Assembly: GCA_000146045.2 (NCBI GenBank)
Contig: BK006944.2
Span: forward strand, 128,001-192,000
DNA length: 64,000 nucleotides
DNA from: TPA_inf: Saccharomyces
Taxonomy: Eukaryota
Reading direction: 5' to 3'
This document shows positions 9,932-34,558 of this stretch, in pieces (position 1 is the first letter of the stretch; each line of letters opens with the position of its first letter). The notes under the pieces are model-generated. The model was not told the DNA's origin. It ran no database searches and saw only the letters and a program-made list of their open reading frames with translations. Made by a program: the position numbers and the translations under genes.

Positions 9932-12691
9932 CTATTGTGTTTTTTTGGTTTTATCCTGTATGATGACATTTTTTAGCAACACATGACCGAGTACTTCCAA
10001 AATAAGCATGAACAAAGATGATAGGATCGCCAAACAATAGTTGGAAATGGTTATGCCAATATCCAACCACGACCCCTCCGTTCTTAAAAGGTAGAAAAAA
10101 TTCAACGACAGAATATCACTCATGGAAATAATTAATGATGAGATTGTGTAGTCCTTGAAGTTAAGTTTTAAATTCAGTATACCTAGGCATGTGGACAATA
10201 GCCCGTAGGGAATTATCAATTTCAACATCAATAATGCGCCCATCAGGAAAGGATCAAAAATTGGCAACAATCTACAAACAGACTCCAATGAAAATGAAGA
10301 GATTGAAGCGACGTTACCAGTTCCAAAGAATGCGACTTGAAGTAAAAAGAACCCGATTACTGAAACTCTTAGCACTTGTAACCAATTTTCATCTTTTTGG
10401 GTCTTCATTTCTTTGATTTTGTTCTCAATTTCAATCCATTGTACCATGTAACTAGTGAACAAGAAGTAGAAAAGGGATTCGAATGATATAGTCAAAATGA
10501 TAAAGGATGGTGCGAAGGTTAAATAAATGATCAATAATCTCACTTTGTAATCATTGTTGGGCTTCCTATAATGTAAAATTGGCATTACAAAAAGAGATAC
10601 AAAAAAAATTATCCATCCAGCGACCTGTGACTCTCTTGGTAACCCTTGTCTTAGCTGTAAAGAGATAACTGAACGATGAGTAACCGCCAACATGGCAGCC
10701 ACCAAGGAAATTTGAATGGCAAATATAGCACGCGTGTAGGAATTTATCCTGGAATGTATTTTGTAAAGAGCATAAAAGGCACTGAGAATGATTAATAACC
10801 CTGCTAGATGTATCTGGTTCAAGTCCTCAATTTTAACAGCGTCAAATAAGGTAAATGTAGATAAAAGAACACTAGTTATGATCCACAATATATTCACGGA
10901 TAGCTCTCTCACCCCACAAATAAACGGGTAAAACGCCAATATATTTGTAATTAGCGTAAACGTCCATCTATGGAAAAATCCATATACAATTCCCTCATAA
11001 ACTGATATAATAGAGATTGTTATTAAAACTCTTTTCCAAGGAGAGGTACCTTTGAAGAATTCCTTGATACCTGAACGTAGTACGGATCTATTTGTAAAAA
11101 TATAGCTCCAAAAGTATAATGGGAAAAGAAGGTACATGTAAAAATTGAACGGAGAATGTTGGTAGAACAAAATCCAATTTAGTAAAATTCCTATGGAACC
11201 AAATACTGCATGGCTTAATGGTGACGCTTTTTGGTCATCAATTACATTCTCTAATATGAATGATTTCAAAAATATTATAAAAGAAAAAAAGATCCACCCA
11301 ACAAACCCAAATGTAACAATAGTTCTAATGAATCTCCAATTATAGGTTGTCAAATAATGTAAACCTTCCAATGTTATCTGCATTAATTCCTCTGTAAGGG
11401 TGATTGCTTCTTGTTCCAAATAGTTTTCTCCTTCAGATATACGCTGAATTAAGGTTTCTATCTCTTCTAAGTAATGTGAATGAGACTTTTCAACAAACTT
11501 GAAGTATTCCTTATAAAAAAATTGAGAGTCTATTACCTCATCTTGCTTGACTAAGTACTGCTCTAAAATGCTTCTTGCGTTGTTGTACAATGCGGCAAGC
11601 TTGTCACTTTCTTTTCCATCGATATATGCTATTGGTAACTCACCAACTGAATTTTTAGGATAGTTCACACCAATCAAGTATGACATTAAAGAAGCAATAT
11701 CTGCTTGCTTGACATCATTTCTTTTAATGCTCGAAAGCTCCCAATTTTCAGTATAGTTGTCGGATACCGGAAAAGGATTATGTACTGGTTTATTCAAACC
11801 CGCACCCCAAGCAACAAGAGGGGTCCTTGTGTTGTTAGGATGACCGTCACCATGTGATCCAAATGCACTCATACCATGATCTGCTGTAAAAATAAATGCG
11901 GTTTTGTCGTCCGCAAAAAACTTGTTGACTTTGTCTATAAGGATAGGGATTTGATCATCAATATATTTGACATTGTCATAATACTCGGCAGAATATGGTC
12001 TATAAGAATGTCCGGCAGTATCGCAACCTAGTAGATGTAGAAAGAATACATTACCGTCTTGCCTAATTTCATAATCCAATGTTGAGTTCAGTGTGGAATT
12101 GTGGAATAATTGATCCAAGTGTCTAAAGACAAAAGCATCCAGCTCGATGGAAGATTGCGTAAAATCCTCGAAAGTATGATCATACATCCAAGTGTCAACT
12201 TTATTTGGGTCAGAAGCGCCATCTTTGAACATAGGTAAAATGTCAGGTGAACCGAATGAATAAGTATGAGTAGATTGGTTGAAAAAACTATCGAAATTGA
12301 CAGGGTTTGACTTCCAACCTTTTGTGACGGCACTAACATCTTCGTAAAACCCAGCAATCATAGCAACATGACCAGGACGGGATTCAGTTGGCATTCTGGT
12401 ATGTGATATACCGTAGGTGGCATTATTCATTACCAAAGATCTAATAAAAGGTGCCAGAAATTCTGTTTTTCCGGATACTGGATGAGTGACTTTATCAAAA
12501 GTGGTATCTGCACGTAAACCATCACCGACAATCAAAAACAATCTCTTTGCAGGAGGGGTTGGAGTACTTTGATATGGGCTCATACCATGAACGAGCGGTG
12601 AAATGAAATAGATATCAAAAATAGACCATAGGTAAAATAAATGAAATAAGACACCAACAGCCAGAAGCGTCGTTCTGGTTTTGTTCCACAT
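9932..12691 (-). CDS. MCD4: GPI ethanolamine-phosphate transferase Mcd4 (PigN family), 919 aa
   Basis: The N-terminal lumenal alkaline-phosphatase/sulfatase-like domain (GDGLRAD ... HLLGCDTAGH ... TADHGM) is followed by more than 10 hydrophobic transmembrane segments. Its 919 aa matches Mcd4. Confidence 0.92.
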   Translation of the reverse strand: MWNKTRTTLLAVGVLFHLFYLWSIFDIYFISPLVHGMSPYQSTPTPPAKRLFLIVGDGLRADTTFDKVTHPVSGKTEFLAPFIRSLVMNNATYGISHTRMPTESRPGHVAMIAGFYEDVSAVTKGWKSNPVNFDSFFNQSTHTYSFGSPDILPMFKDGASDPNKVDTWMYDHTFEDFTQSSIELDAFVFRHLDQLFHNSTLNSTLDYEIRQDGNVFFLHLLGCDTAGHSYRPYSAEYYDNVKYIDDQIPILIDKVNKFFADDKTAFIFTADHGMSAFGSHGDGHPNNTRTPLVAWGAGLNKPVHNPFPVSDNYTENWELSSIKRNDVKQADIASLMSYLIGVNYPKNSVGELPIAYIDGKESDKLAALYNNARSILEQYLVKQDEVIDSQFFYKEYFKFVEKSHSHYLEEIETLIQRISEGENYLEQEAITLTEELMQITLEGLHYLTTYNWRFIRTIVTFGFVGWIFFSFIIFLKSFILENVIDDQKASPLSHAVFGSIGILLNWILFYQHSPFNFYMYLLFPLYFWSYIFTNRSVLRSGIKEFFKGTSPWKRVLITISIISVYEGIVYGFFHRWTFTLITNILAFYPFICGVRELSVNILWIITSVLLSTFTLFDAVKIEDLNQIHLAGLLIILSAFYALYKIHSRINSYTRAIFAIQISLVAAMLAVTHRSVISLQLRQGLPRESQVAGWIIFFVSLFVMPILHYRKPNNDYKVRLLIIYLTFAPSFIILTISFESLFYFLFTSYMVQWIEIENKIKEMKTQKDENWLQVLRVSVIGFFLLQVAFFGTGNVASISSFSLESVCRLLPIFDPFLMGALLMLKLIIPYGLLSTCLGILNLKLNFKDYTISSLIISMSDILSLNFFYLLRTEGSWLDIGITISNYCLAILSSLFMLILEVLGHVLLKNVIIQDKTKKTQ

Positions 12692-13017: not shown

Positions 13018-13089
13018 CTCCGATACGGGGAGTCGAACCCCGGTCTCCACGGTGAAAGCGTGATGTGATAGCCGTTACACTATATCGGA
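13018..13089 (-). tRNA. tE(UUC): tRNA-Glu (anticodon UUC), 72 nt
   Basis: The reverse complement reads TCCGATATAGTGTAACGGCTATCACATCACGCTTTCACCGTGGAGACCGGGGTTCGACTCCCCGTATCGGAG. It has A box TAGTGTAACGG and B box GGTTCGACTCC, with the CTTTCAC anticodon loop carrying UUC. Confidence 0.92.
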
Positions 13090-13793: not shown

Positions 13794-14819
13794 TTAACAG
13801 TTGAGCAAATCGATAGCTTGTAGGTGGACTGCATTACATTGAGTTCCAATGTGCTCATCGTATAAGTTGTAGAAGTTTCCTGACAAACATTGGTAAAAAG
13901 TATCCTGGTCACCGATGGCCAAGTTACCTTCTGGGGTGATGGACCAACCAGCAGCATAGATAGCACCAGCTTGTGGTGGAGGACCATCGAATTGGAATTG
14001 TCTGTTGGCAACGATAGAACCAATTCTACCTTTACCGTCAGTCAGGATACCACCCTTTAAGTTCATTTCTAAAGTGCCACTGCTTTTACATGTTTCAGCA
14101 GTTACTGGGTCAGTGCCATTAGTAATTGGAGCTGGAGCTGGAGATGGTATAATGGTTGCAGAAGTTAAAGTTGTGGCTTGGATTTGGCCATCAGTGATTT
14201 GGGAGACTGGAGCAACAGTAGTATTGGTGGTGGCTTGGATTTGACCGTCACCAATTTGAGAAACAGCAGCAGCAGTGGTTTTAGTAGTGGCTTGGATTTG
14301 ACCGTCACCAATTTGAGAGACAGCTGCAGCAGTTGTTTTGGTAGTGGCTTGGATTTGACCGTCACCAATTTGAGAGACAGCAGCAGCTTTGGTTTTAGTA
14401 GTGGCTTGAATTTGACCGTCACCAATTTGGGAGACGGCTGCAGCGGTAGTCTTAGCTGAGGTAGTCTTGGTGGTGGCTTGGATTTGGCCGTCACCAATTT
14501 GAGAGACAGCAGCAGCTTTGGTTTTAGTAGTGGCTTGGATTTGACCGTCACCAATTTGAGAAACAGCAGCAGCAGTGGTTTTGGTAGTGGCTTGGATTTG
14601 ACCGTCACCAATTTGAGAGATAGCAGCGGCTCTCTTAGCCTTGGAGGAAGCAGTAGTGGCAATTGGTTCAACAGCAATACCGAAAGTAGAAGAGTAATCA
14701 GTTATACCACCCTTGTAAGTAGCTGATGGAGTTAAAGTGGACCACGGGTCCTTTGGAGCATAGGCAGCTAAAGATGTAGCAACTAAGGCGGAGGCAACTA
14801 ATGATTTTTTGTATTGCAT
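13794..14819 (-). CDS. PIR1: Cell-wall protein Pir1 (protein with internal repeats), 341 aa
   Basis: A signal peptide [21 protein letters not shown] is followed by a Kex2 site KAKR, eight [12 protein letters not shown] repeats and the conserved 4-Cys C-terminal domain (C-x66-C-x16-C-x12-C). Confidence 0.93.
14160..14630 (-). repeat. Tandem 57-bp (19-aa) coding repeats of PIR1, 8 units ([19 protein letters not shown])
   Basis: Near-identical nucleotide units read gtggcttggatttgaccgtcaccaatttgagagacagcagcagc. They generate the spurious long ORFs seen in other frames of the track. Confidence 0.9.
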
Positions 14820-16400: not shown

Positions 16401-17378
16401 ATGCAATATAAAAAGCCATTAGTCGTCTCCGCTTTAGCTGCTACATCTTTAGCTGCCTATGCTCCAAAGGACCCGTGGTCCACTTTAACTCCATCAGCTA
16501 CTTACAAGGGTGGTATAACAGATTACTCTTCGAGTTTCGGTATTGCTATTGAAGCCGTGGCTACCAGTGCTTCCTCCGTCGCCTCATCTAAAGCAAAGAG
16601 AGCCGCCTCTCAGATAGGTGATGGTCAAGTACAGGCTGCCACTACTACTGCTGCTGTTTCTAAGAAATCCACCGCTGCTGCTGTTTCTCAAATAACTGAC
16701 GGTCAAGTTCAAGCTGCTAAGTCTACTGCCGCTGCTGTTTCCCAAATAACTGACGGTCAAGTTCAAGCTGCTAAGTCTACTGCCGCTGCCGTTTCTCAAA
16801 TAACTGACGGTCAAGTTCAAGCTGCTAAGTCTACTGCCGCTGCCGTTTCTCAAATAACTGATGGTCAAGTTCAAGCTGCCAAGTCTACTGCTGCCGCTGC
16901 CTCTCAGATTTCTGACGGCCAAGTTCAGGCCACTACCTCTACTAAGGCTGCTGCATCCCAAATTACAGATGGGCAGATACAAGCATCTAAAACTACCAGT
17001 GGCGCTAGTCAAGTAAGTGATGGCCAAGTCCAGGCTACTGCTGAAGTGAAAGACGCTAACGATCCAGTCGATGTTGTTTCCTGTAATAACAATAGTACCT
17101 TGTCAATGAGTTTAAGCAAGGGTATCTTAACCGATAGGAAGGGTAGAATTGGCTCTATCGTTGCCAACAGACAGTTCCAATTCGATGGTCCTCCACCACA
17201 AGCTGGTGCTATCTATGCTGCTGGTTGGTCCATCACCCCAGAAGGTAACTTAGCTCTTGGTGACCAGGATACTTTTTACCAATGTTTGTCTGGTGACTTC
17301 TATAACTTGTATGATAAGCACATTGGTTCTCAGTGCCATGAAGTTTATTTGCAAGCTATAGATTTAATTGACTGTTGA
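16401..17378 (+). CDS. PIR3: Cell-wall protein Pir3, 325 aa
   Basis: It is a paralog of PIR1 with the same signal peptide, a KAKR site, eight SQI[TGS]DGQ[VI]QA repeats and the same C-terminal Cys domain. It is arranged divergently (head to head) with PIR1. Confidence 0.93.
16602..17042 (+). repeat. Tandem 54-57-bp coding repeats of PIR3, 8 units, of which 4 central units are nearly nucleotide-identical
   Basis: tctactgccgctgc[ct]gtttc[tc]caaataactga[ct]ggtcaagttcaagctgc[tc]aag is repeated consecutively about 16730-16900. Confidence 0.9.
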
Positions 17379-18004
17379 ACGATGCATCGATCAATCGGAG
17401 TCGTCCTCCTTTAACTTCACGAATTAGTTGCCACTCTCATTCCCCACACATAAACTTGTTTTATGGCATCCTTTTCATTTAGCATGTCTTTATTTCCAAA
17501 CCTTTCCTCGTTCTTTGCATTCATTTAGCGTTTGCTCGAGAAAGCATCACGTTTTCACACATTATCGTTCGTCGCTATAATAAAAATAGTTATAGAATTT
17601 ACTCAGATTTACATGTCGTACCTTTTTAATTGTAAAAAAAAAAATTTTATGATACATAATTACCTAAATATAATTCAGAATCAAACATACTTATAGCTAT
17701 TTGTATGCTATTAGGTGGTCCTGCTATAAAAATATCGTTTATAATACTTTATATTTTATCTTTCAACTTAGTCGCAATTGCAGAAGCTTTCCCTGAGAAA
17801 AAATTTGTGAAGCTAGCTGCGATAGCAAAGGAGCGCTTAAGGTATAGAAAAGCACTCAGCTGGAATGCCAAAAGATAGTTTAGCAACTGACCAAGGAAAA
17901 AGCTTGTAGGTAGACTTAACTTCATTGTTCTCTAATCCTTTCGTCGTGTATATTGTAAAAACTGCTGAACGAGTATTGATAAAAGATATCTTGGCCACTA
18001 AGGG

Positions 18005-18640
18005 GCAGATCCCCTTCTGGTGTGATAGACAACCCCAGGAGCATAGATAACACCAACTTGTGGTGGAGGGTCATCGAATTGGAATTGTCTGTTGGCAACA
18101 GTAGAACAGATGCTGCCCTTGCTATCTGTCAAAATGCCGCTCTTCAAAGTTACTTTCAAAGCGCTGTCACTGCTACGACAGCTTTTTTTTTAGAAACAGC
18201 AGCAATGCCTTGACATGTAACGTAAGAAAAGAAAAAAGAGATGGCAGAAGAAATACTAAGCGATAACGGCAATGTAGAGGTGCTTTTTTTATCGGAATAA
18301 ATAGAGAAGTCAGTAACAGTGATTGCTGTGGCTCCCTCTTTAATCGTATCTATGTAGGTTCCGATTAAAGTGGTCGTGATTCAGTATTTTTTTTACTAAT
18401 CAAAGTACATGCACTGTTTTTTGTGGGGATAGCAATGATTTCAATTTGGCCGTCAACGATCTAAGAAAAAACGTCTCTCTTAACCGTGGTAGATCCTGTT
18501 GTAATTGTTTGGACAGTGATACCGAAGAAGGAAGTAAATTCAGTAGCGCCGCATGAGGTAGTAGCAGAAGGAGTTAAGGTTGACCATGGCTCACTTGGCA
18601 TATACTGTTGGGCAGAAACAGTATAGTGAAACTGTTATCA
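18005..18640 (-). pseudogene. Decayed PIR-family gene relic (N-terminal block, one degenerate repeat and C-terminal Cys domain); no intact ORF
   Basis: The minus-strand translation of about 18010-18175 gives ...[42 protein letters not shown]..., which matches Pir1 [50 protein letters not shown] +1 indel near 18035 and in-frame stops disrupt it. The segment about 18440-18460, ttggccgtcaacgatct, is one repeat-unit remnant. About 18490-18600 encodes [28 protein letters not shown], matching Pir1 [28 protein letters not shown]. No signal peptide or start codon is preserved. Confidence 0.7.
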
Positions 18641-19629
18641 AACCAATATATTTGGGCTACATGGCTTTCCTTTCCCGAAAAAGACACCATTTAGTAATTA
18701 TGTTGTACTTTTACTCTCTGAACTTCTGTGAATATAAAAAATATACTAAATAAAAGGATGCAACTTCCTTAAAGAGGGCAAGATAGCGACATAAAGTGGA
18801 AAAGTGTTAGCAACATTGCGCAGGCATCGATTAATATATGCATATATACTTTTTACGTAGTCTACGTTAAATTGTCAATAGATCAAGCAGAATCGGTAGC
18901 TCTGTTAAGCGATTAAGCCCAGTGGCTTTTTGTCGCACCGTTTAGGTTCGCGTTAGCAAGATGGAAAAAAAAGAACGCGAATCATGTATTGACGTATGAC
19001 GTATTAGGCAATTTACAAGATTAAACTTAAATTTGCGACGGAGTTTTGAAGTAGAACGAACACCTTACTCATCCGCAACAGGAAATTTTCACGCAGAACG
19101 TGCCTAAGAAAAAAAAATCATATGCGTTTACAGGCACAAATGAAGAAAATGACCGGATATGGATATAAGCTTATGGAAGAAATTGCTCCTATTGAGTTAA
19201 GAATATGCGAGCGAGACCTGCATAAGGCTAATTATAACTCTTCAACCCAAATTTGTCTTTCTCTTCACACCCATCTCTTATAGTCCCATATATTCATATG
19301 AAAGTTCAATGCTTAGACTCAGTGTGTACTTATGATGTCGTTGAAGGCTATTTGGTCTACTGAAAATCCTACCTCGTACGAATACCCTTATAGTATTATT
19401 TAAATATGGGGTTACTATTCGCATTCGTTAGAGTGGTGGGAAATTGATATCTTGTTTGGGAGTTGCGAAACAAAAGAGGAGAAGATATGCGCGCTATGTT
19501 TTTCTTAAAAGAATGCCTACTGCCTATGAAATGAATATACTAAACGTAAAAGTGTAGATAATAGAAACAAAGATTAAGGTCGCTTACTGTAAAAAACGTC
19601 TTCATTTTAATTCAACGAAATAAAAGAAA

Positions 19630-20838
19630 TCACGTGGAGTGTAGCACCGCCAAAGAGCTATTTTTTATGTCTTCTAGTTGAGGCCTATTTCCATTCTGCG
19701 ACGAAAGTGTGCTTCTCTCACTTGGGCTAATCCATTTTTCAACAAAATCAGCAACGTCTTCGACTTCGCAGCTACTAGAAGAACTGTTAATACCATTATA
19801 AATGTTCTGTAACTGTAAGAAGTCCGTCATGAAGCATATTCTTCCACTCCGTTTGTCTGAAAATATTGAATCCGAATATGGCTGTACTATCTGGCTAGAT
19901 CCCGTCGGCCGTGGGCTTATTAAACTCTTTAATAACGATATTATTGTTGGGCTCGATCTTTGCGGGGTGTCTACAATGAAAAGTCTATGTTCTGGAATAT
20001 TATTCTTGATTGTCATCAATATCTCAATTAATTTAGTGGGGATATAAAGTTCTTTACCAGGACTTACATGGGATCGATCATTGAACATTTGTTCTAATGC
20101 AAGTTCACATGAGTAGTCAATGGCGCTATCAAAGCTCTTGGATTTTTGTCCATTCTTATTGATATCCACAAAGCACTGTTGCCACCCTTTGTCATCTGAA
20201 GAGTACCTTACTAAATCGTGGGTTGTGTATTTTATAACATCATTAAGCATCAAAATTTGGATTGGATCCTCTATGTGAAATTTTTTCTGTAAAAAATATG
20301 GGGAAACCGGATAATCTTGTACCAAACTGACTGATCCAGGTATTCCGTCTAAGAGCTTCGAAGGTATTTTGTCACACTTGTATAGAGGTACCATGAAATA
20401 TTTTATTTTCTGGAACATGTTATCAGATAAAGTAGACTTGAGATATGACATTAAATTTTTGCAAATCTGAATTGCTTGGGGTAAATCCGTGTAAATATTC
20501 ACAATGTTAAGATCGTAATAAGGATAGTCATTTAATTTGTAATTAACCAGTAGCCATTTGGCAAGGCATTTGCTAAATTGTGGCTCACAGTCAAGAATGT
20601 TATCAAATGAAAAGGGTTCTTCTTTTGCGGTTGTAGTTACAGGCTTCCTTTGCGTAAAAAAATTTTCTCTTTTCATTATGTTTGGGAAATTTTGCCACTC
20701 TATGTAATCTTTCAAAGAAATTCTCGCAGTTTGGCCTCTTCTTATCCCATTTGTAGAGAGTAATTGCTCGAAAGTAAACAGTGGGTAATCAGATTTCAGA
20801 TGAACTTGAATTCTCAAGGGGTGTAATCTTTTCATCAT
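19630..20838 (-). CDS. YKL162C: Uncharacterised protein, 402 aa (systematic YKL162C by position and length)
   Basis: Clean 402-aa minus-strand ORF beginning MMKRLHPLRIQVHLKSDYPLFTF. I recognise no catalytic motif in it. Its position between PIR3 and KDX1 matches YKL162C. Confidence 0.75.
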   Translation of the reverse strand: MMKRLHPLRIQVHLKSDYPLFTFEQLLSTNGIRRGQTARISLKDYIEWQNFPNIMKRENFFTQRKPVTTTAKEEPFSFDNILDCEPQFSKCLAKWLLVNYKLNDYPYYDLNIVNIYTDLPQAIQICKNLMSYLKSTLSDNMFQKIKYFMVPLYKCDKIPSKLLDGIPGSVSLVQDYPVSPYFLQKKFHIEDPIQILMLNDVIKYTTHDLVRYSSDDKGWQQCFVDINKNGQKSKSFDSAIDYSCELALEQMFNDRSHVSPGKELYIPTKLIEILMTIKNNIPEHRLFIVDTPQRSSPTIISLLKSLISPRPTGSSQIVQPYSDSIFSDKRSGRICFMTDFLQLQNIYNGINSSSSSCEVEDVADFVEKWISPSERSTLSSQNGNRPQLEDIKNSSLAVLHST

Positions 20839-21385
20839 TCAATCCCGCCAAAAGCACCTTTAAATGATATCAACTTTTTTGTGAAAATATTAGTAAGCTA
20901 TTTAAAACGGGAAAGAAAACTTGAGAGAGGACTGACGAGGGAATCATGTTTATATTCGGATCATCGCGAATCTACGCAATGGTGTATCCTACTTTCTCAC
21001 ATTTTGGTTTTTCCCGCTTTCGGAAGGAACTGCAAAACCGCCGAGAGGACTTTCTCTTTTTGCAATATTTGAAGTATATACCAATAATTAAGAAGGTGAA
21101 CAGGCATTTTACATATTCATTATAGATAGTGTATGTGCGCATCTATTAGTTGTGGTTTTCTGCTACAAAAATTTATCGTCTAAATAATTCAAGTTCTTTT
21201 TCTAGGTCGAAGAAAAAATCGCTGTCATCCTCATTTGTATTTTGGTTTGTACCATCATTGACATTTATATCGTGACCTGGGGGAGACGATGAAACTGGGC
21301 TCATTTTTGTTATATTTGGCTCAGTAGGTCCGTTCAGTAGTTCACTATTTTCATGCTTAGTATCTTGTTTGAAGGTGTTTTCCTT

Positions 21386-22687
21386 TTAGTTAACACCCTG
21401 AAATGAATTAGAGCTTATTCCCATAAGGTTTTGATATGGCTGGGTTGTAGTTAGTGATGGAAGTTGGCTTACATAGGAAAATTCAGGACTATAACTGGGT
21501 AAAACTTTCCTAGAAGGATGGACCTGTACAACTTCTTGAGGAATGGCATCCTCTAAAGATAGTGATGATGATGGGGAATCACCGCTAATAGGATGTTTTC
21601 TAACAACTTTCCTGAAATCAAATACTTCCTTTATAACTTCGTTTCCTAATTCCGCCATACTTTCGATATGCTCGAATTCGAATCTAAAGGTCTTTTGACA
21701 TGAGAATTCCTCATCTATATCATGCCACATTGACAAATATGGATGCTCTAGTGCATCCTCTACAGTAATCCTTTTTTTAGGATCAAATTCTAGCATTTTC
21801 TTTAGCAATTCAAGCGCTTCTGGATTAGCACCAGGTAGTATGCTTTCAAACGATCTTCCCGGGATATTACCGAACTGAAAGATATAATTATACACCTTTT
21901 GAGAGGCAATTTCCTGCAATGTTTCCTCAGGTGGTGTTCCAAGTATTTGTAGAATATGATTCAAATGATCTACATAATCCTTCCCTTCAAACATTGGTTT
22001 CCTACCAAGTAGTTCGGCCAAGATACAGCCTGTTGACCAAATATCGACAGCTTTTGTGCATTCTTGATAATTCAGCAAAATTTCTGGTGCTTTATACCAT
22101 ATCGAGGTTATATAACCCTTAATGAAGCCGTCGTTAACCTTGTGGTTTTCTGAATAACTACACGATAGCCCAAAATTACAAATTTTTAGTTGGCAATCAC
22201 TATTAACAAGTAAGTTTTTTGGTTTCAGGTCACAATGTAAAACATTAGCAGAATGTATGTATTTCAGAGCACACAGTATCTGATATATGAAGCTTTGAAA
22301 GTGTGCGTCTTCCAGGCGTTGTTCGGACCTTATAATTTGAGAAAGGTCACATTCCATTAGTTCTTCATATAAATAAACGCCATTTAGTGCCCCATTTGGG
22401 TAAAATACTATATCAGTATCGAAGAGCCACACTATATTTGGGTGCCCTCTTAAATGTCTTAGTAGTTTCAATTCACGAAGAGTTCTCTTGCAAGATAGTT
22501 TATTGCCAAACGCGTTTGGTATTTTTCTGATAGCCACGTGAGTTTCCTCGTTCGATTCTGTGTAAGTTGAAGAACAAATAAGGCTGTGTGAGCCCCGACC
22601 AATCTTACCTGTCAAATGAAAATGTTTATTTAGGATAAAATCTTGGCCGAATGCACGGAAAATACACCTCTCGGTGTCAGTCGCCAT
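21386..22687 (-). CDS. KDX1: Slt2-like MAP-kinase paralog Kdx1/Mlp1 (pseudokinase-like), 433 aa
   Basis: It has a MAPK fold (HCDLKPKNLLV, WYKAPE, DIWSTGCILAEL). However DFG is replaced by NFG (ICNFGLS), the activation-loop TEY is replaced by KGY, and the glycine loop is degenerate (GRGSHS). Confidence 0.9.
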   Translation of the reverse strand: MATDTERCIFRAFGQDFILNKHFHLTGKIGRGSHSLICSSTYTESNEETHVAIRKIPNAFGNKLSCKRTLRELKLLRHLRGHPNIVWLFDTDIVFYPNGALNGVYLYEELMECDLSQIIRSEQRLEDAHFQSFIYQILCALKYIHSANVLHCDLKPKNLLVNSDCQLKICNFGLSCSYSENHKVNDGFIKGYITSIWYKAPEILLNYQECTKAVDIWSTGCILAELLGRKPMFEGKDYVDHLNHILQILGTPPEETLQEIASQKVYNYIFQFGNIPGRSFESILPGANPEALELLKKMLEFDPKKRITVEDALEHPYLSMWHDIDEEFSCQKTFRFEFEHIESMAELGNEVIKEVFDFRKVVRKHPISGDSPSSSLSLEDAIPQEVVQVHPSRKVLPSYSPEFSYVSQLPSLTTTQPYQNLMGISSNSFQGVN

Positions 22688-34486: not shown

Positions 34487-34558
34487 CACTCACGATGGGG
34501 GTCGAACCCATAATCTTCTGATTAGAAGTCAGACGCGTTGCCATTACGCCACGCGAGC
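34487..34558 (-). tRNA. tR(UCU): tRNA-Arg (anticodon UCU), 72 nt
   Basis: The reverse complement reads GCTCGCGTGGCGTAATGGCAACGCGTCTGACTTCTAATCAGAAGATTATGGGTTCGACCCCCATCGTGAGTG, with an A box, a B box GGTTCGACCCC and an anticodon loop CTTCTAA. Confidence 0.9.

Follow-up and report, generated by a model that had tools for sequence, protein, structure and literature searches.

A probable remnant of the cell-wall protein gene PIR6, duplication partner of CIS3, beside PIR3 on Saccharomyces cerevisiae chromosome XI

The window analysed here is a stretch of 64,000 nucleotides from the left arm of Saccharomyces cerevisiae chromosome XI (chromosome coordinate = window coordinate + 128000). Its minus strand holds, at 17880-18662, a disabled gene of the PIR cell-wall family, which can with high confidence be taken as a unitary pseudogene: the S. 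cerevisiae remnant of PIR6, the partner of CIS3/PIR4 from the whole-genome duplication (WGD). The remnant is already known and has been published twice. A paper of 2023 in Microb Cell Fact (PMC10483737) contains a section entitled 'S. cerevisiae encodes a Pir6 remnant' and places Ykl162c-a at a locus homologous to Cis3. A bioRxiv manuscript (10.1101/2023.09.07.545205) describes REMYKL162C-A (REMPIR6) at chrXI 145880-146662 as the WGD paralogue of CIS3.

Homology and extent of the relic

The locus consists of MCD4 (9932-12691, minus strand), PIR1 (13794-14819, minus), PIR3 (16401-17378, plus), the relic, YKL162C (19630-20838, minus), and KDX1 (21386-22687, minus). Between PIR3 and YKL162C, pieces of a Pir protein are spread over three reading frames of the minus strand. 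A first-pass annotation of the window had proposed PIR-family homology here, and tblastn against the window bears this out, with Pir1, Pir3, Hsp150, Cis3, and Pir5 all aligning to the interval. The Pir1 and Pir3 queries match 18186-18034 together with 18035-17883 at summed E values of 1e-25 and 2e-24, respectively, and 18604-18440 at E values of 7e-11 and 1.5e-10; all other matches of these two queries in the window have E > 2. The N-terminal block is matched by Cis3 with 73.6 bits (E 4e-20), compared with 54-57 bits for Pir1, Pir3, Hsp150, and Pir5.

The Pfam domain PF22799 (PIR1-like_C) scores 66.9 bits, over a cut-off of 27.6, on profile positions 1-70 of 74 in the frame-corrected translation of the relic, a score that requires the removal of one inserted base and reading through two stops. 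Because of the tblastn E values and a Pfam score over the threshold, the homology is considered real and not due to chance. The PIR repeat (PF00399) has no match at E ≤ 0.01 in the translation.

A MAFFT alignment of the DNA with the orthologous genes of S. paradoxus, S. mikatae, S. kudriavzevii, and S. uvarum shows that the relic is collinear with the entire intact open reading frames (ORFs) of these species, which are 744-780 bp long. The whole pseudogene extends over 783 bp, from the ancestral ATG to the ancestral TAA. The span of 18005-18640 proposed at first is therefore too short at both ends, and the start codon and signal peptide, which had been described as missing, are represented by the ancestral ATG at 18662-18660 and by a recognisable remnant. 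The three homologous blocks that had been described are real; the stretch between them is also homologous, as part of the PIR6 linker, which is seen in comparison with the PIR6 orthologues and is invisible in comparison with Pir1 or Pir3.

Intact PIR6 in sister species

The loci of S. paradoxus, S. mikatae, and S. kudriavzevii were fetched through the neighbouring YKL162C protein, and that of S. uvarum by direct match. In all four species the region between PIR3 and the YKL162C orthologue holds an intact ORF of 247-259 codons, which, like the relic, lies on the strand of YKL162C. The product has 253 residues in S. uvarum, 258 in S. paradoxus, and 259 in S. mikatae, and that of S. paradoxus is identical to SPAR_K00570 by exact look-up. 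For S. eubayanus/S. pastorianus an intact protein of 253 residues is on record, and the gene is known there as a protein only. The order YKL162C - PIR6 - PIR3 - PIR1 - MCD4 is found in S. uvarum and S. kudriavzevii, and the same order could be followed as far as PIR1 in the S. mikatae locus and as far as the start of PIR3 in the S. paradoxus contig. Full-length Pir6 in seven Saccharomyces species other than S. cerevisiae is reported in PMC10483737.

In a neighbour-joining tree (176 columns, numpy distances, 300 bootstraps), the relic is the sister of S. paradoxus Pir6 with a bootstrap support of 94%, and this pair then joins S. mikatae Pir6 with a support of 98%.

The annotated start of the S. 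kudriavzevii gene (L010:10069-10827), which gives a product of 247 residues beginning with MSPVAALL, is probably five codons late. If the start is set at an in-frame ATG farther upstream, the product begins with MQLKHMSPV..., and this aligns to the MQLK with which the other species begin.

Partnership with CIS3

The first-pass annotation assigned the relic to PIR5 (YJL160C), as the likely ohnologue of that gene, discarded during the phase of gene loss that followed the WGD. The PIR clusters of chromosomes X and XI do share a Crick-Watson-Crick (C-W-C) pattern of strands, and PIR5 is the least studied member of the family. This pattern, however, is unable to pair the members of the two clusters, because it is symmetric; the flanking genes decide.

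Torulaspora globosa was used as the pre-duplication genome to pair the cluster members. Its one locus has the order VPS35, FBP26, SSY5, FAR1, a CIS3-like gene (plus strand, 227 residues), a PIR gene (minus, 367 residues), a PIR gene (plus, 292 residues), an FMP33-like gene, JJJ2, and MCD4, the last of which encodes a protein of 919 residues with 74% identity to the MCD4 product of the window. The PIR order of T. globosa recurs at a second locus, which likewise has one cluster of three PIR genes. On chromosome X, which was reached through Cis3, the order is VPS35, FBP26, SSY5, FAR1, CIS3 (plus), HSP150 (minus), PIR5 (plus), FMP33, JJJ2, and YJL163C. The proposal that the clusters of chromosomes X and XI descend from a WGD pair agrees with the T. 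globosa synteny. From the gene order at the T. globosa locus, it follows that MCD4 marks the multi-repeat end of the cluster. On chromosome XI, MCD4 adjoins PIR1, and the relic lies at the far end of the PIR cluster. The pairs are therefore PIR1 and PIR5, PIR3 and HSP150, and the relic and CIS3. For Ashbya gossypii, an inversion is noted in 10.1101/2023.09.07.545205.

The number of repeat units and the similarity of the proteins point in the same direction. The relic and all Pir6 proteins have one repeat unit, proteins of the Cis3 type have one or two, Pir5 has four, and Pir1, Pir3, and Hsp150 have 8-13. The intact Pir6 proteins of S. uvarum, S. eubayanus, and S. kudriavzevii are 62-65% identical to Cis3 in the N-terminal part and 79-83% identical in the C-terminal part, compared with 42-55% and 69-78%, respectively, for the other Pir proteins, among which Pir5 is the furthest.

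Two observations limit the support for the pairing with CIS3. The C-terminal block of the relic is about equally similar to all the paralogues (51-57%). The neighbour-joining tree of 176 columns does not recover a clade of Pir6 and Cis3 apart from the multi-repeat Pir proteins; its midpoint root is drawn to the long branches of Pir6 and lies beside that clade. Because this deep node of the tree is unsupported, the partnership rests on synteny, the number of repeats, and pairwise similarity. On these grounds the relic is the ohnologue of CIS3 (YJL158C) and not of PIR5.

The assignment to PIR5 is refuted by synteny, and we regard it as extremely improbable. Pir5 does have a tblastn match to the relic, with E values of 6e-23 and 5e-14, but it is the weakest overall of the five queries and the lowest in aligned identity (46.2%). 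It has four repeats against the single one of the relic and every Pir6, and the relic lies at the end of the cluster opposite to the PIR1/PIR5 end that MCD4 flanks in T. globosa. Moreover, the presence of the intact gene at the same spot in four sister species (and, as a protein only, in a fifth, S. eubayanus) speaks for a recent loss, and the two published accounts (PMC10483737; 10.1101/2023.09.07.545205) agree in making Pir1 the partner of Pir5 and the relic that of Cis3, the former also pairing Pir3 with Hsp150.

A decayed young tandem duplicate of PIR1 or PIR3, unconnected with the WGD, might be suspected from the nearness of the relic to both genes and from the fact that tandem PIR clusters are common. 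The N-terminal block, however, carries motifs of the Cis3/Pir6 type (GEPW...SCG/A and KRDxxSQ) and not of the Pir1/3 type (KDPW...YKGG). One repeat is all that the relic has, and in the tree it groups with Pir6 rather than with Pir1 or Pir3. Orthologues occur across Saccharomyces, and three PIR genes in this order are already present in the pre-duplication species. A tandem origin is thus refuted by the orthologues and the synteny, and its probability is close to nil.

The sister block of chromosomes X and XI seems to end at the relic, as judged from a comparison of window positions ~18663-19629 with T. globosa and chromosome X. In both of the latter, the CIS3-type gene is followed by FAR1, and no homologue of YKL162C or KDX1 lies within 10 kb of it. 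For these reasons, the side of the relic that faces YKL162C would be an old rearrangement boundary.

Parts and lesions of the relic

The relic carries nine disabling lesions, made up of five in-frame stops and four frameshifts. The earlier recognition of a pseudogene with in-frame stops and a +1 frameshift was correct in this respect, except that the +1 is one frameshift among four. The frameshifting indels are a 2-bp deletion beside 18623, 1-bp deletions after 18381 and after 18196, and the insertion of one base in the G-run at 18036-18033. The stops are CAG>TAG at codon 2 (18659-57), CAA>TAG at the Gln codon of the repeat (18463-61), TTR>TAA (18192-90), Cys>TGA (17924-22), and CAA>TAA (17918-16). 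There are, in addition, three in-frame insertions of 3 bp (18422-20, 18394-92, and 18223-21). The counts given in 10.1101/2023.09.07.545205 are three deletions totalling four bases, ten inserted bases, five in-frame stops, and 75% identity to S. paradoxus.

Five parts can be recognised along the minus strand. The ancestral start and the remnant of the signal peptide occupy 18606-18662; the ATG is followed directly by the first TAG, and the frame-corrected remnant, with the frameshift at the 2-bp deletion, aligns to MQLKRIALAAASLTAVSAQGYTPGEPW of S. uvarum. Reading the entire signal-peptide remnant in frame 2 was considered and rejected, since the alignment with the orthologues puts the switch of frame at the 2-bp deletion. 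Subunit I, the mature N-terminus, occupies 18476-18605 and ends in a Kex2 Lys-Arg site, the codons of which are kept at 18481-18476. It is followed at 18431-18475 by a single degenerate PIR repeat, DVFS*IVDGQIEIIA, where the asterisk stands for a stop. This one repeat-like unit is visible by alignment only (S*IVDGQIE), and its stop is the TAG that replaces the first Gln codon of the SQIxDGQ motif.

The remnant of the Ser/Thr-rich linker (18187-18430) is homologous to the linker of PIR6 (..DITTTL..EGAT..STL..) and contains the two 1-bp deletions and the TAA. The remnant of the C-terminal PIR1-like domain (17883-18186) contains the insertion in the G-run, the change of FYQC to FYQY, and the last two stops, and is followed by the ancestral stop codon TAA, which is kept at 17882-17880. 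Its last ~40 codons, ending in VYLQAFSLVSC*, lie below 18005. The domain had been described as the four-Cys domain of the family; it is recognisable as such, but just one of its four conserved cysteines is in place. The first is replaced by Arg (with a neighbouring change of Ser to Cys), the second by Tyr, and the third by TGA, and the fourth is kept. With a broken ORF, no match to the PF00399 repeat, and three conserved cysteines gone, the relic is not a functional member of the PIR family, although it retains the PF22799 C-terminal domain in the frame-corrected reading and the Lys-Arg codons.

Timing and manner of the loss

Four sister species still have an intact gene at this position, which dates its loss to after the split of S. 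cerevisiae and S. paradoxus. The loss of PIR6 is therefore recent and specific to S. cerevisiae, and does not belong to the early post-duplication period, as had been suggested at first. According to 10.1101/2023.09.07.545205, REMPIR6 is intact in none of 94 or 1011 strains.

The relic has diverged from S. paradoxus PIR6 to the same extent as the DNA around it. The identity is 75.5% for the relic and 72.6% and 75.2% for the flanking intergenic DNA, compared with 88.4% for YKL162C and 86.3% for KDX1. The ratio of the proportions of nonsynonymous and synonymous changes (pN/pS), polarised by parsimony, is 0.71 on the S. cerevisiae branch (44 nonsynonymous and 19 synonymous changes), against 0.26 and 0.22 on the S. 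kudriavzevii and S. uvarum branches, respectively (Fisher p = 0.001). A set of 28 other Pir proteins is invariant at 66 columns, and the relic is changed at 20 of these.

Similar observations are made within the species. Over the relic, eight other S. cerevisiae alleles are 98.2-99.3% identical, and over a longer intergenic stretch 98.3-99.1%. Eight of the nine lesions are common to the window copy and these eight alleles. The ninth, the 1-bp deletion after 18381 (window 18380-18381), is missing from all eight, which have a C there, and on this account it is considered younger, confined to the lineage of the window strain, and not the original inactivation. Private lesions are found in other strains as well: one allele (L014) has TCA>TGA at 18582 and 1-bp deletions at 18394 and 18191, and another (L015) has a 2-bp deletion at 17953-17952, which rewrites the end of YKL162C-A. 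The smallness of this sample counts against the inference; for six of the eight alleles the source is a short contig from a metagenome or read assembly, and the coverage of one is ~2.4x. The relic shows a continuing and about neutral decay, with lesions still being added strain by strain.

The S. paradoxus gene (L008:10208-10984) is intact, yet at six columns it departs from the residue that 28 other Pir proteins share, as in ANRQFQFDG>ANGQFQSDG and WSTLTPS>WSNSTPS. Its branch has a pN/pS of 0.59 (Fisher p = 0.03 in comparison with the 0.22-0.26 of S. kudriavzevii and S. uvarum, for one sequence). A tentative reading is that the constraint on PIR6 was already relaxed before or outside the S. 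cerevisiae lineage, in which case the S. paradoxus copy might itself be a 'dying' gene that a disabling mutation has yet to hit.

Protein collections hold several artefact products of the relic, namely two ORFs in which TAG is given as Gln (P0090 and P0089, of 148 and 101 residues) and one S. cerevisiae entry of 210 residues (P0098). The 148-residue entry was considered as a less decayed allele and rejected, because the DNA has TAG and the Q is an artefact of recoding by the gene caller; its only real difference is the extra C at 18381. The 210-residue entry was likewise rejected as an allele with an internal deletion. There is no deletion at the locus, where the gene spans 692 bp, and the entry is a model with a spurious intron, with its N-terminal half read out of frame.

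Short ORFs and YKL162C-A

Several short ORFs lie within the relic, and the suggestion that such ORFs are fragments of the pseudogene is supported by frame analysis against the orthologues. The annotated dubious ORF YKL162C-A, of 50 codons, occupies 17922-18074 on the minus strand; exact look-up of its product returns 'Putative uncharacterized protein YKL162C-A [S. cerevisiae S288C]' in UniProt and NCBI. Read from its ATG, which lies upstream of the +1 insertion, it departs from the ancestral frame for 15 codons and follows that frame for the remaining 35. It ends at the Cys>TGA mutation and has none of the four conserved cysteines. The first-pass annotation had suggested that YKL162C-A might be an ORF of about 46 codons. 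That ORF exists, at 18461-18601 on the minus strand, but it is a different one. It starts from an internal ATG in place of an ancestral ACx (Thr) codon, ends in KRDVFS, and is terminated by the TAG of the repeat (18463-18461), and its product has no exact match in a collection of 15 billion proteins. The short ORFs, that is, YKL162C-A and unannotated ones of 46 and 53 codons, are by-products of decay.

It may be asked, nevertheless, whether the pseudogene has been partly reborn, with YKL162C-A (17922-18074) as a new gene under selection for a small secreted peptide whose signal sequence would have arisen from the 15 codons read out of the old frame, as proposed in PMC10483737. That paper provides the observations which weigh against a complete lack of function. 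The YKL162C-A segment is transcribed in a strand-specific manner in respiring and sporulating diploids; a signal peptide is predicted (DeepSig 1.0, SignalP 0.57); on overexpression, 15 to 21 new residues work as a signal sequence, a ymScarletI fusion being secreted when expressed from the TEF1 promoter; and hints from ribosome profiling are mentioned, the data not being shown in the paper. Moreover, the ORF is open in seven of eight full alleles (the allele of the window being counted, and a ninth contig ending inside the ORF) and in 12 protein variants from strain assemblies.

On the other hand, the native protein was undetected under every condition tried (PMC10483737). The 153 bp of the ORF contain, in eight alleles, five nonsynonymous and no synonymous single-nucleotide polymorphisms, together with a 2-bp deletion that rewrites the last nine codons, and the 12 peptide variants differ at nine of the 50 positions. 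Therefore, we read YKL162C-A as being without detectable constraint. Considering also the end of the ORF at a mutated Cys codon, the lack of the four conserved cysteines, and the divergence of the whole relic, which equals that of intergenic DNA, a rebirth of the gene is unlikely. The relic as a whole is best understood as having no present function, although a total absence of function is not proven.

Ancestral gene and history

Ancestral PIR6 encoded a Pir cell-wall protein with a single repeat. The protein began with a signal peptide and subunit I and continued with a Kex2 Lys-Arg site, one Gln repeat, a linker rich in Ser and Thr, and a C-terminal domain with four cysteines. The Gln of the repeat is the residue that links Pir proteins to beta-1,3-glucan (PMC10483737), and this ancestral biochemical role is presumed for Pir6 by analogy with the family. 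The gene remained intact through most of the time since the WGD, and its frame is still open in the other Saccharomyces species. In the S. cerevisiae lineage its function was lost, and the sequence has since drifted at an approximately neutral rate. Five stops and four frameshifts have accumulated there, and the key Gln codon and three of the conserved cysteines, which number four, have disappeared.

Such a history explains why S. cerevisiae has five Pir proteins and its sister species six, and it shows the dubious ORF YKL162C-A to be a piece of a dead gene. It also provides a clean case of an ohnologue that was kept for most of the post-WGD time and then lost in one species. As a matter of method, the pattern of strands alone cannot pair the members of duplicated clusters, for which the pre-duplication flanking genes are needed. 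Beyond a tidy annotation, the matter is of little consequence.

Neighbouring genes

KDX1/YKL161C (window 21161-22687, minus strand, with its tail included) has 433 codons, fewer than its orthologues in S. paradoxus, S. kudriavzevii, and S. uvarum (504-508). After ...SFQGVN comes a single in-frame stop, at a position where S. paradoxus and S. kudriavzevii have Glu, and a tail of ~70 codons can be read downstream in the same frame (KENTFKQD...SSPPGHDINVNDGTNQNTNEDDSDFFFDLEKELE). The stop of the S. cerevisiae allele thus seems to be premature. Two tRNA genes on the minus strand, unrelated to the relic, are tRNA-Glu(UUC) between MCD4 and PIR1 (13018-13089) and tRNA-Arg(UCU) further on (34487-34558).

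Comparison with known systems

The closest relatives of the relic are the PIR6 genes of the sister Saccharomyces species (SPAR_K00570, the S. mikatae gene, SKDI_11G0580, SUVZ_11G0550, and that of S. eubayanus), which it resembles in position, strand, length, order of domains, and the single repeat. These genes are open frames of 247-259 codons, in contrast to the relic with its five stops, four frameshifts, and 20 of 66 family-invariant residues changed.

CIS3/PIR4 (YJL158C) resembles the relic by its position, by its N-terminal match (73.6 bits), and by its single Gln repeat. The two share the GYTPGEPW...SC motif and a KRDxISQIxDGQ directly after the Kex2 site. CIS3, in contrast, is intact and encodes 227 residues, the linker of Pir6 differs from that of Cis3 and is longer, and the relic is non-coding. 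PIR5 (YJL160C) belongs to the same family and to the cluster on the sister chromosome, but it has four repeats, is the least similar to the relic and to intact Pir6, and sits at the FMP33/JJJ2/MCD4 end of the cluster, which is the position of PIR1.

The published REMPIR6, or 'Pir6 remnant', is the same object as the one described here. Its interval, chrXI 145880-146662, equals window 17880-18662, its assignment to CIS3 is the same, and the counts of lesions are close. The accounts differ in the origin of the N-terminus of YKL162C-A, which is attributed to two single-base frameshifts 40 bp apart in PMC10483737 and to one +1 insertion plus an out-of-frame ATG here. What the present analysis adds to both papers is a few strain-specific lesions and the sign of relaxed constraint in S. 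paradoxus.

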